Assembly: GCA_964487475.1 (NCBI GenBank)
Contig: CAZAPM010000005.1
Location: 1-64,000, forward strand
Direction of reading: 5' to 3'
DNA: 64,000 bases
From: an uncultured Planctomycetales bacterium
GTDB taxonomy: Bacteria; Omnitrophota; Gorgyraeia; Gygaellales; Profunditerraquicolaceae
Part shown: one piece after another, positions 18,001 to 33,000 of the stretch
Position numbering within the stretch: the stretch's first letter is position 1
Layout: the number at the start of each line of letters is the position of its first letter
Program-made: the position numbers

Positions 18001-21000
18001 CCGCATCCGTAACGATTACCAGGCCTACAAGAAGAACAAATCCCTGATGGATTACGACGACCTCCTGGTCTACCTCAAGGAGTTGCTGGTGACCCGGCCC
18101 GAGGTGCGCACCGCGCTTTCCCGCCGGTACCGCTACATCATGGTCGACGAGTACCAGGATACCAATAAGCTGCAGGCGTACATCGTATGCCTGCTTTCCA
18201 GCGAGCACAAGAACGTCATGGTGGTCGGGGACGATTCGCAGAGCATCTATTCTTTCCGCGGGGCGAATTTCAAGAACATCATCGATTTCCCCAATCTTTT
18301 CCCCGGCGCCAAGGTGATCATGCTGGAGGAGAATTACCGCTCCCTGCAGCCGATCCTCAACCTCACCAACGAGGTGATCCATTATTCGAAGGAGAAGTTC
18401 GATAAGAACCTTTTTACCCGCCGGACCGGAGGCACGCTGCCGGTGTTCGTGGATGCGGCGGACGAGCATGCCCAGTCCCGGTATGTGGCGGATAAGATCC
18501 TGGAACTGCGGGAGAGCGGGGTGGAGCTGAAGGATGTGGCGGTGCTGTTCCGTTCGGGGTGGCATTCGAACGACCTGGAAGTCGAGCTGGCCTCCCGTAA
18601 TATCCCCTTTGTGAAGTACGGCGGCCAGAAATTCGTGGCGGCGTCGCATATCAAGGACGCGATGTCCTATTTGCGCATCATTTATAACATGTACGATGAG
18701 GTCAGCTGGCTGCGGTTGCTGCTTCTGCTGCGGGGAATTGGTCCAAAGACCGCGGAGAGGGTGCTCCAGGGAGTAGTGGCGGCCAAGCAGGGGCTGGAGT
18801 ATAAGGATGCGCTCCTGTTCAAGCACGAGGATTTGAAGAGCCTCATGGAGGTGTTGCGTTCGGTGGATCCCTCGGCCATGGCGCCGGCTGCCATGCTCGA
18901 GCTTTTCCTTAAGCATTACGGGCCGCTCCTGCGGGAGAAGTATGATGATTACCATAAGCGTATCAATGACTTGGAGTCTCTTTTGCGCATCGCCGAGCGG
19001 TATACTTCCCTGACCGAATTCCTGACCGACATGGCGCTTGAGCCTCCGGAGCGAAGCATTATCGAGGCAGGCACCCTGGACCGGGACGATTCCCCGGTGA
19101 CCCTTTCCACGATCCATTCCGCCAAAGGGTTGGAGTGGCACACGGTATTCCTGCTGTATGCGGCAGAGGGGCATTTGCCCTCCTACCTGTCTCTGGAAAG
19201 CGAGGAAGGGATCGAGGAGGAGCGTCGCTTGTTCTACGTCGCCACCACCCGGGCAAAGGAAAACCTTTATATGCTCAAACCTCACCTGGAGCGCTCCCCC
19301 CGCGGCTATATGCATGAGGGCGGGTCGGTCTTTACCCAGGCTTCCCGTTTTCTGACCGAGGGCGGGATCATGCAGGGGATGGTGCACATCGAGTCCGAAG
19401 GCAGGGATGCGTTCGACGAGGTGGATGAAGAGGATGTGACCGGTGAGCGAGGGGCCCGCGGTACAAGCGACACCTACCTGCGCCTGATGAAGGAGTATTT
19501 CGAGGGCGAAGAGGGATAAAGCAATTTTCTTGACACGAAAAAAGAACGATAGTATAATCAATTAGTTAAATTTAACCATATTTTTGCTGAGTGGGAATTT
19601 CTTGCCATGCAATGGGATAAGCACACACAACATACTTTCGAGACCTTCATTTCTCGCATCCCGATCTTCCATCGCGCGATCACCAAGGAAACCGTGAGAA
19701 CGAAGGCTGAAGAGCTGGCCGAAGCGAGAAAAGCGGCCTTGGTCGAGGAAAAGGATGTGGTGGATGCGTTTTTTGCGGACGTTCCTTCGCCTTTTTACAG
19801 CATGATGATCCGACTGATGGAACAGACAGGCATCGATTACCGCAAATACGGCTACCCCAGAGCCTCCCGGAAATAACCGTCCCTACGTATGAAAATTGCC
19901 GTCATTGGTGCAGGAGCGATAGGGAATCTTGTGGCCGGCTACCTTGCGCATAAGGGAGCGGACGTGGTGCTGGTGGGGCGGCCCGGCTCGGCCGAGGCGA
20001 TCCGTTCGCACGGGCTGCGCATTACCGGAGTGCGGGGGGAGTTGCAGGTGCGGGTAAGCATCGGGGAGCGCCTGTCCCTGGCGCCGGAGATCGCCGTGCT
20101 GGCGACGAAGACGCAGGATATCGAAGAGGCGCTGCGCTCCAATCAGGGGTATCTGCAGGAGAGCCTGATGCTGACTACGCAAAACGGGGTGCGCGCGGAT
20201 GCCATTGCCGCGCGGTTCGTGCCGCGGGAGCGTATCGTATCGAGCATAGTGATGTTCGGGGCGACGTACCTTGAGCCCGGGCATGTGGTGCATAATTTCG
20301 AGGGGAACTGGATCATGGGCAAAGGGTTTCCCTCGACCCCGGATACTCTGGTGCAGCAGGCGTCCCTTATGGCGTCCGCGGCGTTTTCGGTGGAGGTGAC
20401 TCCGCAGCTTTCCGGGATGAAGTACCTTAAAATATTCGTCAACGCCAACAATTGCATTCCCGCGATCCTCGGCACCAGTATGCAGGAAGCCTTCGCCGAT
20501 GCCGGGGTCAGCCGGGTGAGTGTCGCGATCTGGAGGGAAGGGCTGGAGGTGGTGCGCGCGGCAGGGATCACGCTTCACTCCATGCCTCATTTCCCGGTGG
20601 AGAATGTCACCAAGCTTTGCGCGATCCCGCTGGATGAGGCGGCCAGGGTGTTCTCCGGATTGATGGGAAAATTGAGCCGGGAGCCGCTCTACGGCTCCAT
20701 CCTGCAGAGCATCAAGCGCGGCCGCGCCTCGGAGATCGAGTATATCAACGGCGAGTTCGTGCGGCTGGCGCAGGCGCACGGGAAAGAGGCGCCGCTTAAC
20801 GCGAAGCTGGTGGCGATGGTGCATGAGGTGGAGAAGCGCGAGCAGTTCCTTTCCCGCGAGGCGTTTCTGGAGCAGGTGCAGGGGCTCTGCGCATAAGAGA
20901 GGGCGGTCATGGTAGATACTCCATTCCCCAAGTTGAAGCTTACCGTGAATGCGGTGCACGGTCATTGTTACCACGGGTATAAGATCGGCGACGAGATCAT

Positions 21001-30000: not shown

Positions 30001-33000
30001 TGCACATCATAAGCTCGGTACGCAGGGAGAGGTGGCGCGGATATTCAACGATGCGGTCGCCAACATCCTGCGCAAGTATCCCGATACGTTCATCGGCGCG
30101 GCGGTGATGCCGGTGGGGGATGCGGCAGTGATGCTCGACGAGGCTAAGCGCGCTACGGAAAAGATGGGGTTCCGGGCGATCTCCCTGGCCACGAGCTATG
30201 ACGGGGTGTATCTGGATGACGCGCAGTTCACCCCGCTTTTCAAGTTCTGCCGTCAGATGCGCCTGCCGGTGTTCGTGCATGCGCAGATCGTTAATCCCAT
30301 CGGATCGGACAGGGTCAAGGACCCTTTGCTTACCCCGGTCATCGAATATGTGTTTGAAACTACCATGTGCGTGGGCCGGCTCCTCATGTCGGATATCCTG
30401 CGGGAATCCGAAGGCCTTAATTTCGTGTTCGGGTATTTCGGCGGAGTGACCCCGTTTCTGGCGCACCGGTATGACGCGACCTACCGGATGCTGCGGGGGA
30501 TCAATTTCGTGAAGGACCTGCAGGCGGATCCGACGCAGTTCCTGAAGCGTATTTATGTCGATACCAGCGGGGATACTACCCGCGCCAACCTGGAGGCGGC
30601 GCTCGCGCTTTTCGGGCCGGAGCATATCCTCTGGGGCAGCGACTGGCCGGCGAAGAAGGACGGCGCCGGTTCGATGGATGCGATCAGGGGCCTGGCGATC
30701 CCGGAGGAGGGAAAGGCCGGGATATTGGGGGAGAATGCGTTGCGGCTGTTCCAGGGTGGTCAAGAATGAGGAATAATGCTTTTTTGCGCGTCTCGGTGCT
30801 GGTGGCGGTTATTGCAGGTGCGTTGGCAGGTGTCCCGCGTTCGGGAGGGTGCGCACCGGAACCTTATAAGGAATGGTCGGGTAGCGATTCCATGTTCGGG
30901 GGATTTGGGTACGATTCCAGGAAGAGCAGGATCGAAGAAGGATGGTTTTCCGGCAGGGTGGGGCATCACGAGAAAGAGATGGCTGCGTTTAAGGCAGGGC
31001 AGGAGCTGTCGGGTCCCGTAAAGAATGATTTCCACTGGGTGTTGCAGGTTCTGTTGAAAAAACCGTCTCGGATCGATTCTATCACCGTGTTCCCGGGCAC
31101 GCGCGGGCAAAATCATCAGACAGGGCAGCTGTTCTGCAAAGGTCAGGGGTGGAGCACGGCGAAGGGGACGGAAAATGAGTGCGGAGCGGTACTGGACCCG
31201 TTGCTGGTTTTTTTCAAAGGATCGCAGCTCAATGCCGGATATGATCAGACGCTTGGCGAGTACCCTGCGGATAAGCTGTTGACCTTCGATCTCTTCGGCC
31301 CGGCCCGCACCGATGCTTTTGAGGGAGGCGGAATAAGGGTTGAGCTGAGTGACGGGTCTCATCTGATCTCCGGCTTTGGCGATGAACTTACGAGCCCGCG
31401 CGTGAAACATTGCACCATTGCGACCGTTCCTCCCCCCTGGAATGCGGGGCAGTGGGGAGGGAAGGCATATGTACCGGTTCCGGATAAATTGCAATGGAAG
31501 GCTACCTTGCAGCTGGGGAGGCCGCTACAGATCCGCTCCATGTCGATTGAGCCATATACTATTAAGGTATCGTATAAAGGTGTAGAGTTGGATGCAAAAG
31601 ATATGCGTTCCCTGGGAGAGCTACCCGTTGGCGGACACACCTTTGATATATTCAGCGCGGGGCCGATCAAGGAGTCCCAGGGAGGGGATTTCGTGGTCGA
31701 ATTTGTTGACGGGGAAAAGTACCGTGTTGCTTTTGAGAAATCTGTCCCGGGTCTCCGATTGCATATTGATCTTTGTTGTGATAGGTCTCCTTGCGTGGAA
31801 CAGGGTACCGCGAAAGTTCCCGAGAAGTTCAGTATTTCCTTTTGTCGGCACTATAAGCCAGTTTCCGATAAACGGGATTATTTATATGTCGTGGGTGTTC
31901 TCACAGGAGAGTTTGATATTAAGAAGCGCCAGTTGGTGCTCACGCGCAGCGAGTCTTACGGGAAACTGCGTATTCGGGGTGCGGCAAAAAAGTTTACGAT
32001 CCCTCTTTCCGAAGATGGGAGCGCCAAAGGAGAGATACTCTATACCCATAAGGATGAGTTTTTCGGCGAGTCGATTTCGGGCACGATCTCTCTTGATCTG
32101 CAGGTACGGGAAGACGGCCGGCTGGTGATCCGGGATGCAGCGGTTTCCGATTCGTTCGACCGCAGGTTCTTTTTCCCGAGGAAGGGAACCGCGGTTAAAA
32201 CGCATGGCGAGTTGTTCTCTCTTCAGGGGGGACATGGAGACGGATTGAGTTCTGTGACATACGATAATACGGGATTTTTCTTTGACGGGATCGATGACGG
32301 AAAGGTGATCATCTCAGCTGCCCCGTATGAGTCGGAATACGGGGGTGGCGGATGCAGCGAGGAGGATGATACGCCAGTCGCCGTTCTCGACTTGAATGAA
32401 GCGGGTCTGGCGACCTATGTGCACCAGGGGCATTCCTTCGAATTCAAGCTTATCGCAGAGCCGCATACCCGCGAGAAATTTTTCGTTCAATGGAAATGTT
32501 TAGATACAGAAGGCTTGAGAGTCGAGCTCGTCGACCCGGATAAGTAAGGGAGGGATCATGGCGCAATGTCCGTCGTGCAATCAGAAAGTCCCGTTCGGGA
32601 TCCTGCGGTTTGATTTTGCCAAGAACGCGGGCAAGTCCCGGTATCACCGCGAGTACGCGTGCCCGTTCTGCAAGCAGCTCTTCAGTATCACCGTCGCATC
32701 GAGGATCGCGGCGGAAGTGCTGGTGATCGCGGGCAGCATCGGCATATTCGTGGCCGCAGATAAGTTCTTCGGGAACGAAACTTTGGGGGTCCTGGCGGCG
32801 GTCGTCTACGCAATTGTGCTGGCGATAATCTGGTGGATCGGGTTCGCCCAGACCTATAGGCCGTAAGGGTATTATTGCGTGATGCGATGAAAAAAGCATT
32901 TCTTTCGTTGTTCCTGTGCGCCGTATGGTGCTCCTGCGGGTGGGCGGGGGTACGGGAGACCGCAGATGCGCTGATATACGTTCCGGATTCCCTGGACCAT

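Follow-up and report, generated by a model that had tools for sequence, protein, structure and literature searches.

The window analyzed here, a stretch of 64,000 nucleotides, holds a long plus-strand operon built around a ketosynthase pair (Table 1). The genes named in a preliminary description (g00661 to g00674) do lie at 19607–30769 on the plus strand, with intergenic gaps of −8 to 106 bp. The right boundary given there, 30769, is wrong, as the operon extends to 37742. The genes past 30769 encode a nucleoside phosphorylase, an isomerase, an aldolase-SCP2 fusion, and an aldehyde dehydrogenase (the module below); an acyl-CoA ligase gene lies nearby. This second half, the operator, and the variants of the locus without the polyketide synthase (PKS) were overlooked. 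They are the best clues to function.

Table 1. Features of the operon and its surroundings in the window.
Feature	Position	Strand	Remarks
accA (acetyl-CoA carboxylase alpha)	7673..8620	+	adjoins operon 5' end in many relatives, here 11 kb off
PadR-family regulator, candidate repressor	8623..9129 (match range)	+	56% to operon-heading PadR of relatives
Sigma-70 consensus promoter	19530..19558	+	12/12 consensus matches
Predicted operator	19563..19578	.	degenerate copy, 3 mismatches, of palindrome TAGTAAAATTTTACTA
Small DUF2621/PCP_red-like protein	19607..19876	+	PCP_red score below cut-off; conserved in relatives
Ketopantoate-reductase-like (PanE/ApbA) 2-oxoacid reductase	19889..20896	+	family match
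Tandem TIGR04076 Cys protein	20909..21523	+	probable metal or redox partner
Ketosynthase KS-alpha	21525..22787	+	Cys170, His310, His347
Catalytically dead partner KS (chain-length factor, CLF)	22780..24009	+	Arg162 at Cys site; Asp302, Asn339 for both His
Radical SAM enzyme with B12-binding-type domain	24063..25523	+	cluster-specific clade
Acyl carrier protein	25630..25869	+	GVDST motif
PF04199 cyclase	25866..26672	+	family match
Cupin	26674..26988	+	3' end truncated by assembly gap
100-N assembly gap	26989..27088	.	
Monodomain TcmN/WhiE-type aromatase/cyclase	27089..27526	+	structure-library matches
MFS transporter	27527..28657	+	optional among relatives
Short-chain reductase (SDR)	28671..29447	+	
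133-aa protein	29444..29845	+	no known family
Amidohydrolase-2 protein	29849..30769	+	best matches aromatic-acid decarboxylases (LigW, gamma-resorcylate decarboxylase)
Three coupled inserted genes (593, 102, 221 aa)	30766..33540	+	insertion in this genome; 593- and 221-aa genes without match among 80 related loci
Hexameric-type (DeoD/Udp) nucleoside phosphorylase	33554..34300	+	DMV replaces EME
MtnA-type sugar-1-phosphate isomerase	34297..35235	+	catalytic Cys, Asp present; 7-residue loop deleted
Class II aldolase-SCP2 lipid-binding domain fusion	35232..36251	+	sole class II aldolase of genome
Aldehyde dehydrogenase	36255..37742	+	
Acyl-CoA ligase (long-chain/aryl type)	40003..41529	+	within operon in relatives; here two opposite-strand genes intervene

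The polyketide synthase core

The gene content supports the earlier reading of the operon as a predicted aromatic type II PKS: alongside an active KS and its dead partner, there are a discrete ACP and cyclases of two or three types. The best PDB matches of the KS are 6smo_B (383 bits), which we take to be AntD, and the actinorhodin KS 1tqy_A (381 bits); FabF is lower (351 bits). As first described, the KS retains its catalytic Cys and both His and is closer to type II PKS structures than to FabF. Its partner g00665, whose gene overlaps the KS gene by 8 bp, lacks all three residues, and Arg occupies the Cys position in 104 of 106 homologues. For the aromatase, all structure matches are WhiE/TcmN ARO/CYC proteins (E 1e-24). 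The PF04199 cyclase is presumably of the OxyN/AntC type by family. A separate fabH-fabD-fabG-acp-fabF block and a separate second KS pair are also present in the genome, as is a second PanE/ApbA copy, 26% identical to that of the operon. The caveat raised about the CLF stands. With a CLF profile, FabF reaches 364 bits and actinorhodin CLF only 287 bits; with the single sequence, the values are 269 and 263 bits, respectively. Many non-actinomycete CLFs share this ambiguity (PMC10132072, in extract).

Like the ant (AQ-256, Photorhabdus), den (dendrubins), and clr (clostrubin) systems, the cluster has no oxygenase and a CLF without the Gln for malonyl decarboxylation. The KS-CLF-ACP set with TcmN-type and OxyN-type cyclases resembles ancestral non-actinomycete PKSs (extract of PMC7693217), and ant also has a ligase in its cluster (extract of PMC6638757). 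Unlike these three, the present cluster has a monodomain aromatase, radical SAM, TIGR04076, PanE-like, and DUF2621 genes, the trimming module, class-wide conservation, and PKS-less variants with a transporter. The description used here credits the den locus with nothing beyond a PKS, a pair of cyclases, an oxidoreductase, regulators, and transporters.

Omnitrophota type II PKSs as such are already in print (PMC6638757 S1 Table; PMC10132072). In the parts of these sources that we used, 11 antiSMASH type II PKS clusters of Omnitrophica spp. are counted as one unique BGC, and Ca. Desulfofervidus auxilii has one. Judged from these listings, they very probably belong to the same family as the present cluster. 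The same parts place the D. auxilii KS/CLF, tried in E. coli, outside the three soluble pairs; they are silent on the product, on how far the operon extends, and on any trimming module or distribution.

Conservation and control

The earlier figures, 179 stretches matched and 80 loci kept, were reproduced, and per-gene locus counts refer to these 80 of 179. The CLF is found in 160 of 234 genomes of the order and in 88 of its 112 high-quality ones, in line with the wide presence reported before; related genomes are not independent, so such counts overstate support. Of 45 full-span loci, 41 keep the 11 core genes in one order. Three of the four exceptions are overlap-filter artefacts with all genes present, and the fourth (L047) has no TIGR04076 match. 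The fixed arrangement applies only inside the taxonomic order; elsewhere the genes are rearranged. The cluster had also been called lineage-bound, which it is not: the CLF occurs in 70 of 301 genomes of the phylum, 33 of them outside the order (32 from 12 families in other orders of the class, one in another class). These extra-order CLFs are 55–72% identical, and Desulfofervidus-type contigs also carry a PKS locus of this type. Aromatase, MFS, and cupin genes are present in 57, 39, and 10 of the 80 loci.

The 70–80% identity claimed earlier applies to the KS, CLF, radical SAM enzyme, ACP, cyclases, and SDR (medians 71–81%) and not to PanE (57%), the amidohydrolase (63%), or the MFS transporter (55%). 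In 25 loci, the medians are 81% for the KS, 78% for the radical SAM enzyme, and 75% for the CLF, versus 74% for AccA. The CLF tree broadly tracks families, and the CLFs of records labeled Planctomycetales, flagged as a concern, sit inside the clade of the window's family. AccA-level conservation, this tree, and one kept operator support the view that this is not a sporadic antibiotic cluster. The term "core metabolite", however, is too strong. A CLF match is missing from 24 of the 112 high-quality genomes of the order, and G072 (96% complete) gave no match to the CLF, the transporter, the operator, or the family radical SAM enzyme.

The predicted operator is the only site in the 1.87 Mb genome with at most three mismatches to the 16-bp palindrome, which recurs within two mismatches in 57 of 59 related loci. 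It is found with 0–2 mismatches ahead of the loci in G001, G002, G412, G429, G041, G462, G471, G119, G134, G242, and G485 and of four Desulfofervidus-type loci, and also lies ahead of that in G468. A single predicted operator heads all tiers: PKS loci, PKS-less loci with the module, and ligase plus transporter.

Radical SAM enzyme, trimming module, and PKS-less relatives

The radical SAM enzyme carries a CxxxCxxC motif and an N-terminal B12-binding-type domain, which are features of class B (cobalamin-dependent) methylases. All of its NCBIfam matches fall below cut-off, and the best are the non-methylating BchE and HpnJ. Across all tiers, the radical SAM enzymes group in a single clade, distinct from the paralogues in the genome, and so do the ligases. 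At least 18 further B12-type radical SAM matches occur in the genome, none with a trimming module. A ladderane/anammox-type FAS cluster was rejected: TIGR04072 reaches 74 bits against a cut-off of 360, and no dehydratase is found among the operon genes.

The phosphorylase comes next in 24 of the 25 loci with at least 3 kb past the amidohydrolase, and the module remains linked to the PKS despite rearrangement in other orders. The aldolase-SCP2 fusion is present in 68 of the 70 CLF-positive genomes of the phylum sample. Of 76 copies of the isomerase, 74 are shorter by seven residues behind the catalytic Cys (spacer 24 versus 31), and the RGAP motif of the cluster isomerase is replaced; the phosphorylase carries DMV in 69 of 80 copies. 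The top scores of the ligase are to long-chain fatty-acid ligases. With its phosphorylase, MtnA-type isomerase, and class II aldolase the module resembles the DHAP shunt (MtnP-MtnA-Ald2), and with its added dehydrogenase the fluoroacetate route of Streptomyces cattleya. It differs from both in the hexameric-type phosphorylase with DMV, the loop-deleted isomerase, the SCP2 fusion, and the added ligase. Its copies are also extra ones beside canonical MTAP and canonical MtnA in the same genome, and are bound to one radical SAM clade. The canonical shunt form was rejected, as RGAP and the full post-Cys loop are lacking and the aldolase is fused, not stand-alone.

Among the PKS-less relatives, some retain the radical SAM enzyme, module, and ligase and others only the ligase, in either case next to an MMPL/LolA-like/DUF1302 transporter. 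A close LolA-like transporter gene is present in 9 of 11 fusion-positive CLF-less genomes versus 4 of 70 CLF-positive ones; three of these 11 (G082, G240, G477) resemble broken assemblies. Seven more genomes have the transporter and neither CLF nor fusion. In G001, G002, G412, G429, G446, and G468, KS matches are at FabF level only, and an aromatase search gave no match there and matched all four positive controls. The window's genome has only distant transporter homologues (22–30%), located elsewhere than the operon. In its DUF1302, DUF1329/LolA-like, and HAE3 RND components the transporter resembles AmeABCD and PP_0765-0766/PP_2018-2019; unlike those sets, it is linked to the ligase and radical SAM module.

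A lost PKS is often replaced by a lipid transporter and ligase, a pattern like that of vitamins, quinones, and special lipids. Since these relatives keep the transporter behind the same control site, the product is likely a greasy ring compound, which the cells either make or would obtain from their neighbours. In the literature searched we found no make-or-import tiers under one operator. The four CLF-positive genomes with the transporter count against this reading, and a homologous set described as efflux (PMC6394551, in extract) counts against import.

Proposed pathway and alternatives

We tentatively propose that the radical SAM enzyme adenosylates the PKS ring, that the module then trims it to a ring-acetic acid, and that the ligase activates this acid with CoA. 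The outcome would be a hydrophobic building block, probably destined for the envelope of the cell itself, which PKS-less kin would import. By family, the KS, CLF, and ACP would assemble a poly-beta-keto chain. The aromatase, PF04199 cyclase, and cupin would close the rings, with reduction by the SDR and decarboxylation by the amidohydrolase. The radical SAM enzyme would then add a 5'-deoxyadenosyl radical to the polyketide, by analogy with HpnH and MqnE; this is the weakest step. The phosphorylase would strip adenine, the isomerase would give the ketose phosphate, the aldolase-SCP2 fusion would split off DHAP to leave R-CH2-CHO, and the dehydrogenase would yield R-CH2-COOH. For these reactions the enzyme classes are evident, and we infer the bulky substrate. 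The ligase would form R-CH2-CO-CoA, and the PadR-type repressor, if it binds the palindrome, would sense the product.

There are precedents for the chemistry. HpnH attaches adenosine to a lipid and HpnG removes the adenine (PMC13459092, in extract), and 5'-substituted adenosine is converted to substituted acetate by a phosphorylase, isomerase, aldolase, and dehydrogenase (PMC8945431, in extract). The likeness to HpnH, HpnG, and HpnN is one of working principle: a radical SAM enzyme, a nucleoside phosphorylase, and an MMPL/HAE3 transporter act on a hydrophobic ring. The hopanoid side-chain pathway itself was rejected, as the radical SAM enzyme is not HpnH and squalene-hopene cyclase, present in 11 other genomes, is missing from all 88 that make up the three tiers. 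In Desulfofervidus-type loci, the order is radical SAM enzyme, phosphorylase, isomerase, aldolase, dehydrogenase, and ligase, with transporter genes interspersed. This is the proposed pathway order. It speaks for the proposal, as do the linkage of the module to the PKS, the remodelled extra copies, the tiers under one operator, the single clades of radical SAM enzymes and of ligases, and the lack of the SCP2 domain in the six aldolases (191–215 aa) examined at loci without the radical SAM enzyme and isomerase.

Several observations count against the proposal. The best structure match of the radical SAM enzyme is the dehydratase AprD4, HpnH is absent from its model matches, and the adenosylating radical SAM enzymes known to us have no B12 domain. 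The phosphorylase has lost a Glu that we take to be ribose-binding. One Desulfofervidus-type PKS locus (L197) has no trimming genes in the 12 kb examined; it encodes a radical SAM enzyme of its own along with a glycyl-radical enzyme. An aldolase without SCP2 persists in genomes that have no cluster, and ordinary salvage may therefore be a further role of the aldolase. Some module loci (L139, L141, L191) have no dehydrogenase, and G485 has only the phosphorylase and aldolase together.

A possible, though doubtful, alternative is that the radical SAM enzyme methylates, dehydrates, or oxidizes the polyketide at high flux. The module would then be a DHAP shunt from 5'-deoxyadenosine to DHAP and acetate, with ligase and transporter supplying an imported fatty-acyl starter for an alkyl-aromatic lipid. 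The enzyme classes are those of the shunt (PMC10986504, in extract), loss of the radical SAM enzyme goes with loss of the module, and the ligase scores fit. Without its Gln the CLF would need external priming, and extracts of PMC6638757 S1 Text treat that Gln and link a cluster ligase to starter loading. Growth of P. putida on fatty esters requires DUF1302/DUF1329/RND genes (bioRxiv 2020.07.04.188060, in extract). Yet the genome already has canonical MTAP and MtnA, its other B12-type radical SAM matches do without such a module, and the loop deletion and SCP2 fusion would be needless. Acetate fits a long-chain-type ligase poorly, and the module and transporter persist where no PKS requires a starter.

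An exported bioactive polyketide like clostrubin or the dendrubins, whether an antibiotic or a compound directed at host or prey cells, is unlikely. The MFS gene inside the operon, the PadR regulator, the dispensability of the system in some genomes, and antibiotics from related ancestral type II PKSs of anaerobes (PMC7693217, in extract) are consistent with it. Housekeeping-level conservation with broadly vertical descent and the many loci without MFS argue against it, and a transporter and ligase replacing the PKS under the same operator indicate a needed compound, not a weapon. Least probable, and improbable on the whole, is a FAS-like KS heterodimer, comparable to that of anammox clusters, whose product would be a modified acyl chain without aromatic rings, with the cyclase-family genes as lipid carriers: START and SCP2 folds bind lipids, the CLF profile ranks FabF first, and fabF models score best for both KS genes, but type II PKS structures are closest to the active KS, the START protein matches aromatases only, neither a dehydratase nor an enoyl reductase turned up in the operon, and a separate FAS and second KS pair exist.

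Carried further, the adenosylation and trimming pathway would define a new class of cell component, an idea we hold with considerable doubt. This would be a polyketide polycyclic fatty-acid analogue, with a carboxymethyl arm from the SAM ribose 4'/5' carbons, obtained through adenosylation by a radical route followed by aldol trimming. Its makers would be certain anaerobic Omnitrophota and sulfate reducers, and their relatives would scavenge it under one regulator, as a membrane-stiffening or redox-active lipid replacing hopanoids or quinones. The reading is testable because the radical SAM enzyme has relatives in the named Ca. Desulfofervidus auxilii and Ca. Velamenicoccus archaeovorus, both cultured as enrichments. 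To our knowledge, almost all known type II PKSs belong to secondary-metabolite clusters of patchy occurrence; the present one has been conserved with housekeeping-level identity through much of a class of 1–3 Mb anaerobes. If the reading is true, its product would be a metabolite shared among these organisms, or a biomarker, in anoxic groundwater, sediments, and vents, and its synthesis an oxygen-free new way of adding a two-carbon acid arm.

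The polyketide synthase operon

All the genes named in the preliminary description were found, in one direction and tightly spaced. The right boundary proposed there, at 30769, had to be moved: the operon extends to 37742. The ketosynthase (KS) keeps its catalytic residues Cys170, His310, and His347. Its best solved structures are 6smo_B (383 bits) and the actinorhodin KS (381 bits), and the best FabF is lower (351 bits). In the chain-length factor (CLF), the catalytically dead partner, an Arg takes the place of the Cys in 104 of 106 homologues and there is no His. It had been cautioned that the CLF matches FabF no worse than it matches CLFs, and this is indeed so: a 15-sequence profile gives 364 for FabF versus 287 for the actinorhodin CLF, which leaves the protein without a clean place among known CLFs. 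As for chain length, at the positions that we take to be the gatekeepers in actinorhodin numbering, the CLF would have Trp at 109, as does AntE (C16; PMC6638757, S2 Table), but small residues elsewhere.

The only matches of the START protein (145 residues) are the WhiE and TcmN aromatases, and the nearest relatives of the amidohydrolase are aromatic-acid decarboxylases. A nonaromatic product resembling that of a fatty acid synthase fits less well and is very unlikely. The tandem protein matches only TIGR04076 clusters in the Atlas, where the 133-residue protein has no match. The cupin gene is cut by a gap of 100 N. Apart from the operon, the genome carries a plsX-fabH-fabD-fabG-acp-fabF block and a second KS pair, so the pair in the operon is an extra one; because the fab block is complete, we rejected the operon pair as the fatty acid synthase of the cell. 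The second KS pair, with a reductase, is unrelated to the operon (see table). The operon is a real type II polyketide synthase (PKS) operon, one of the ancestral kind, and its extension is undescribed.

Within the order (Gygaellales in the earlier naming), 160 of 234 genomes carry the CLF, and so do 88 of the 112 high-quality ones. An even sample of the phylum, Omnitrophota, has it in 70 of 301 genomes. Of these, 37 belong to the order and 33 lie beyond it (32 in 12 families of the class's other orders and one in another class; CLF identity 55–72%). The CLF is thus not confined to the order, contrary to the earlier proposal that it is lineage-bound. A fixed gene order holds within the order (11 core genes in 41 of 45 full-span loci, with three of the four exceptions being artifacts of the overlap filter); elsewhere the genes are shuffled, yet kept together. 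Median identities to the window genes over 25 loci are 81% for the KS, 78% for the radical SAM enzyme, 75% for the CLF, and 74% for AccA. The first three are therefore conserved like AccA, which agrees with the suggestion that this is not a sporadic antibiotic cluster. To speak of a core metabolite goes too far, since the system is dispensable: genome G072, 96% complete, is without it, and a short aldolase is all that remains at its locus. A FastTree tree of the CLF is broadly family-wise, with several forks open. Among the 80 loci kept, 16 are labeled Planctomycetales, one Pseudomonadota, and two "bacterium"; the first label had been pointed out earlier, and those of these records that are in the tree sit within the clade of the window's family.

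In the parts of these papers available to us, carriers of type II PKSs include Omnitrophica species and Ca. Desulfofervidus auxilii (PMC6638757), KS–CLF pairs occur in 14 phyla with Omnitrophica among them (PMC10132072, the supplement of which may list these clusters), den, ant, and clr are described as ancestral systems (PMC7693217), and type II PKSs are not among the expressed Omnitrophota clusters (PMC9902471). The KS–CLF pair of Ca. Desulfofervidus auxilii did not prove soluble in E. coli. The literature searched, with subscription journals mostly outside it, gave no description of the extent of the operon, its product, the trimming module, or the tiers described below.

Features of the window and of related sequences (G, sampled genomes; L, fetched loci)
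Feature	Sequence	Position (strand)	Remarks
Predicted operator	window	19563..19578	16-bp palindrome
Genes of the preliminary description	window	19607–30769 (+)	
Three coupled genes	window	30766–33540 (+)	within the operon
Phosphorylase, MtnA-type isomerase, class II aldolase–SCP2 fusion, aldehyde dehydrogenase	window	to 37742 (+)	gaps ≤10 bp; after the three inserted genes
Two stomatin/SPFH-like genes	window	37739–39964 (−)	identified by eye; part the dehydrogenase from the ligase
Acyl-CoA ligase	window	starts 40003	
Large Tad/Flp pilus-like gene run	window	50145–63015	judged from translations; CpaB-like, secretin, ParA-ATPase fusion, TadB/C-like, and pilin-like genes
Second KS pair with reductase	G000 C1	21195–24708	
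Dehydratase-class glycyl-radical enzyme and activase	L197; L188	6649–9950; 2–2829	within Desulfofervidus-type PKS operon
Isomerase C-terminal fragment	L139; L120; L181	11682–12173; 7040–7528; 5626–6093	examples
Class I (DeoC/LacD) aldolase and zinc alcohol dehydrogenase	L090; L094; L127	5582–7412; 2894–4757; 3219–5123	inserted
CBM11-like secreted protein	L079	15285–15896	also in 34 other loci
Xanthine-dehydrogenase-family molybdoenzyme operon	L202 (G402)	7149–10948	behind a perfect second operator

The proposed trimming module

The three inserted genes, which had no match in a Pfam search, encode a 593-residue protein with a signal-like start, a 102-residue membrane protein containing Cys pairs, and a 221-residue esterase-like protein. 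Beyond the amidohydrolase, the phosphorylase is present in 24 of the 25 loci with enough downstream sequence. The aldolase–SCP2 fusion is found in 68 of the 70 CLF-positive genomes; in the other two (G028 and G470) the cluster lies at a contig end. The family is small: at 1e-30, the fusion has only 44 matches among 1.84 billion representative proteins. Ten distant fusions were found. The aldehyde dehydrogenase and the acyl-CoA ligase are neighbors in many relatives.

The module enzymes are remodeled extra copies; MTAP and MtnA are also present in the genome in canonical form. The spacer after the catalytic Cys of the isomerase is 24 residues long in 74 of 76 cluster copies (the remaining two were not parsed), versus 31 in the housekeeping copy. 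The phosphorylase carries DMV in 69 of 80 copies; one differs and ten were not parsed. Presumably, these changes reshape the pocket for the 5′ substituent. The structure models of the isomerase and the aldolase are confident, and a fold search with the isomerase simply confirmed the MtnA assignment.

A fragment of 145–175 residues corresponding to the isomerase C-terminal domain adjoins the isomerase gene in many lineages and is possibly a noncatalytic partner. Several lineages have a class I aldolase and a zinc alcohol dehydrogenase beside the aldehyde dehydrogenase, and L136 and L137 have aminotransferase IV genes. The gene for the CBM11-like protein lies between the SDR and 133-residue genes in 35 of 80 loci; the protein has no match in the window's genome.

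Operons without the polyketide synthase, and the predicted operator that they share with PKS loci

The fusion occurs without the CLF in 11 sampled genomes, the second tier. Seven of them (G001, G002, G412, G429, G446, G468, and G486) have the module, with the radical SAM enzyme, phosphorylase, isomerase, aldolase–SCP2 fusion, usually the dehydrogenase, and the ligase, next to MMPL, LolA-like, and DUF1302 genes; in G446 and G468 a contig end removes part of it. The accA–padR pair that heads the PKS operon in relatives also precedes it in G001, G002, and G412, the genomes with upstream flank. In ten PKS-less genomes searched in full, KS matches were at the FabF level only (≤47%), and an aromatase search of six of these gave no match while detecting four of four positive controls. 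Among the 11, G082, G240, and G477 are apparently broken assemblies and G485 holds the module only in part. A close LolA-like gene is present in 9 of the 11, versus 4 of the 70 CLF-positive genomes, and in seven further genomes with neither CLF nor fusion. Ligase and transporter genes make up the locus, the third-tier arrangement, in G471, G119, G134, G242, and G485. The radical SAM clade is absent from four of the tier-3 genomes searched (G119, G134, G041, and G462) and likewise from G072. These tier counts come from related, not independent, genomes and incomplete assemblies. The ligases of all tiers form a single clade (support 91), in which the window's group has those of G119, G134, G001, and G002 as its sister. 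The radical SAM enzymes likewise form one clade in quick and FastTree trees. Some lineages have two copies.

The predicted operator, for which a PadR protein is the candidate repressor, precedes the first gene at 57 of 59 PKS loci, and PKS-less operons are headed by it too. The window copy comes after a sigma-70 promoter that matches the consensus perfectly; no other site within three mismatches occurs in 1.87 Mb. No gene is common to the second operator sites, one of which is a perfect copy (see table). About 48 of the 301 genomes match a reversed control pattern, and chance may therefore explain one-mismatch sites elsewhere than at the operon.

The radical SAM enzyme has relatives with a named source within the phylum in Ca. 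Velamenicoccus archaeovorus and, outside it, in Ca. Desulfofervidus auxilii, Deferribacterota, Fibrobacterales, and one Thermodesulfobacteriota record. With one of these relatives as query, 20 metagenome loci were retrieved. In six (L181, L182, L184, L186, L190, and L191) the module is accompanied by genes of the MMPL, LolA-like, DUF1302, and ligase types, five of them in pathway order; L191 is shuffled and has no dehydrogenase. One locus, L197, reads TIGR04076–KS–CLF–ACP–cyclase–aromatase–SDR–amidohydrolase, followed by a glycyl-radical enzyme and then by a second copy of the radical SAM enzyme. Assignment of this glycyl-radical enzyme as an arylacetate decarboxylase or benzylsuccinate synthase was unsupported; its best scores are to the dehydratase class, all below the cut-off. 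In one 90% cluster (P0334), proteins of Ca. Desulfofervidus auxilii are grouped with records labeled Ca. Methanoperedenaceae. Mislabeled bacterial partner DNA may account for the "archaeal" KS–CLF matches of PMC10132072.

Chemistry and role of the product

The chemistry that we tentatively favor is radical adenosylation of the product by the radical SAM enzyme, after which the adduct would be trimmed to R–CH2–COOH and activated with CoA. This would account for the gene order and would explain why the aldolase is fused to SCP2, why the isomerase is opened, and why the enzymes are present in duplicate. There are precedents for both halves: HpnH/HpnG for adenosylation (PMC13459092) and the fluoroacetate route for trimming (PMC8945431). 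Three observations speak against this reading: the radical SAM enzyme is more like BchE, HpnJ, and AprD4 than HpnH, the linkage of the dehydrogenase is inconstant, and SCP2-less aldolases survive without the cluster. The main rival, in which built-in salvage of 5′-deoxyadenosine is combined with a fatty-acyl starter, is the less probable account. In the loci retrieved from outside the phylum the PKS half and the module half are separate operons, and the transporter could therefore be an exporter too. An exported antibiotic fits less well and is improbable. Hopanoid processing was rejected, as a squalene–hopene cyclase is missing from all 88 tier genomes. The full cyclase occurs in 11 of 301 Omnitrophota genomes (L158–L162; families f17, f20, and f41), none with this system; this mutual exclusion is too lineage-bound to interpret.

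It is conceivable, if doubtful, that the product is a polyketide lipid, made or scavenged, with an acid arm derived from SAM. The presence of either a PKS or a transporter in its place, the constant ligase, and the shared operator suggest more generally that it is probably a hydrophobic acid that the cell needs and either makes or takes up.
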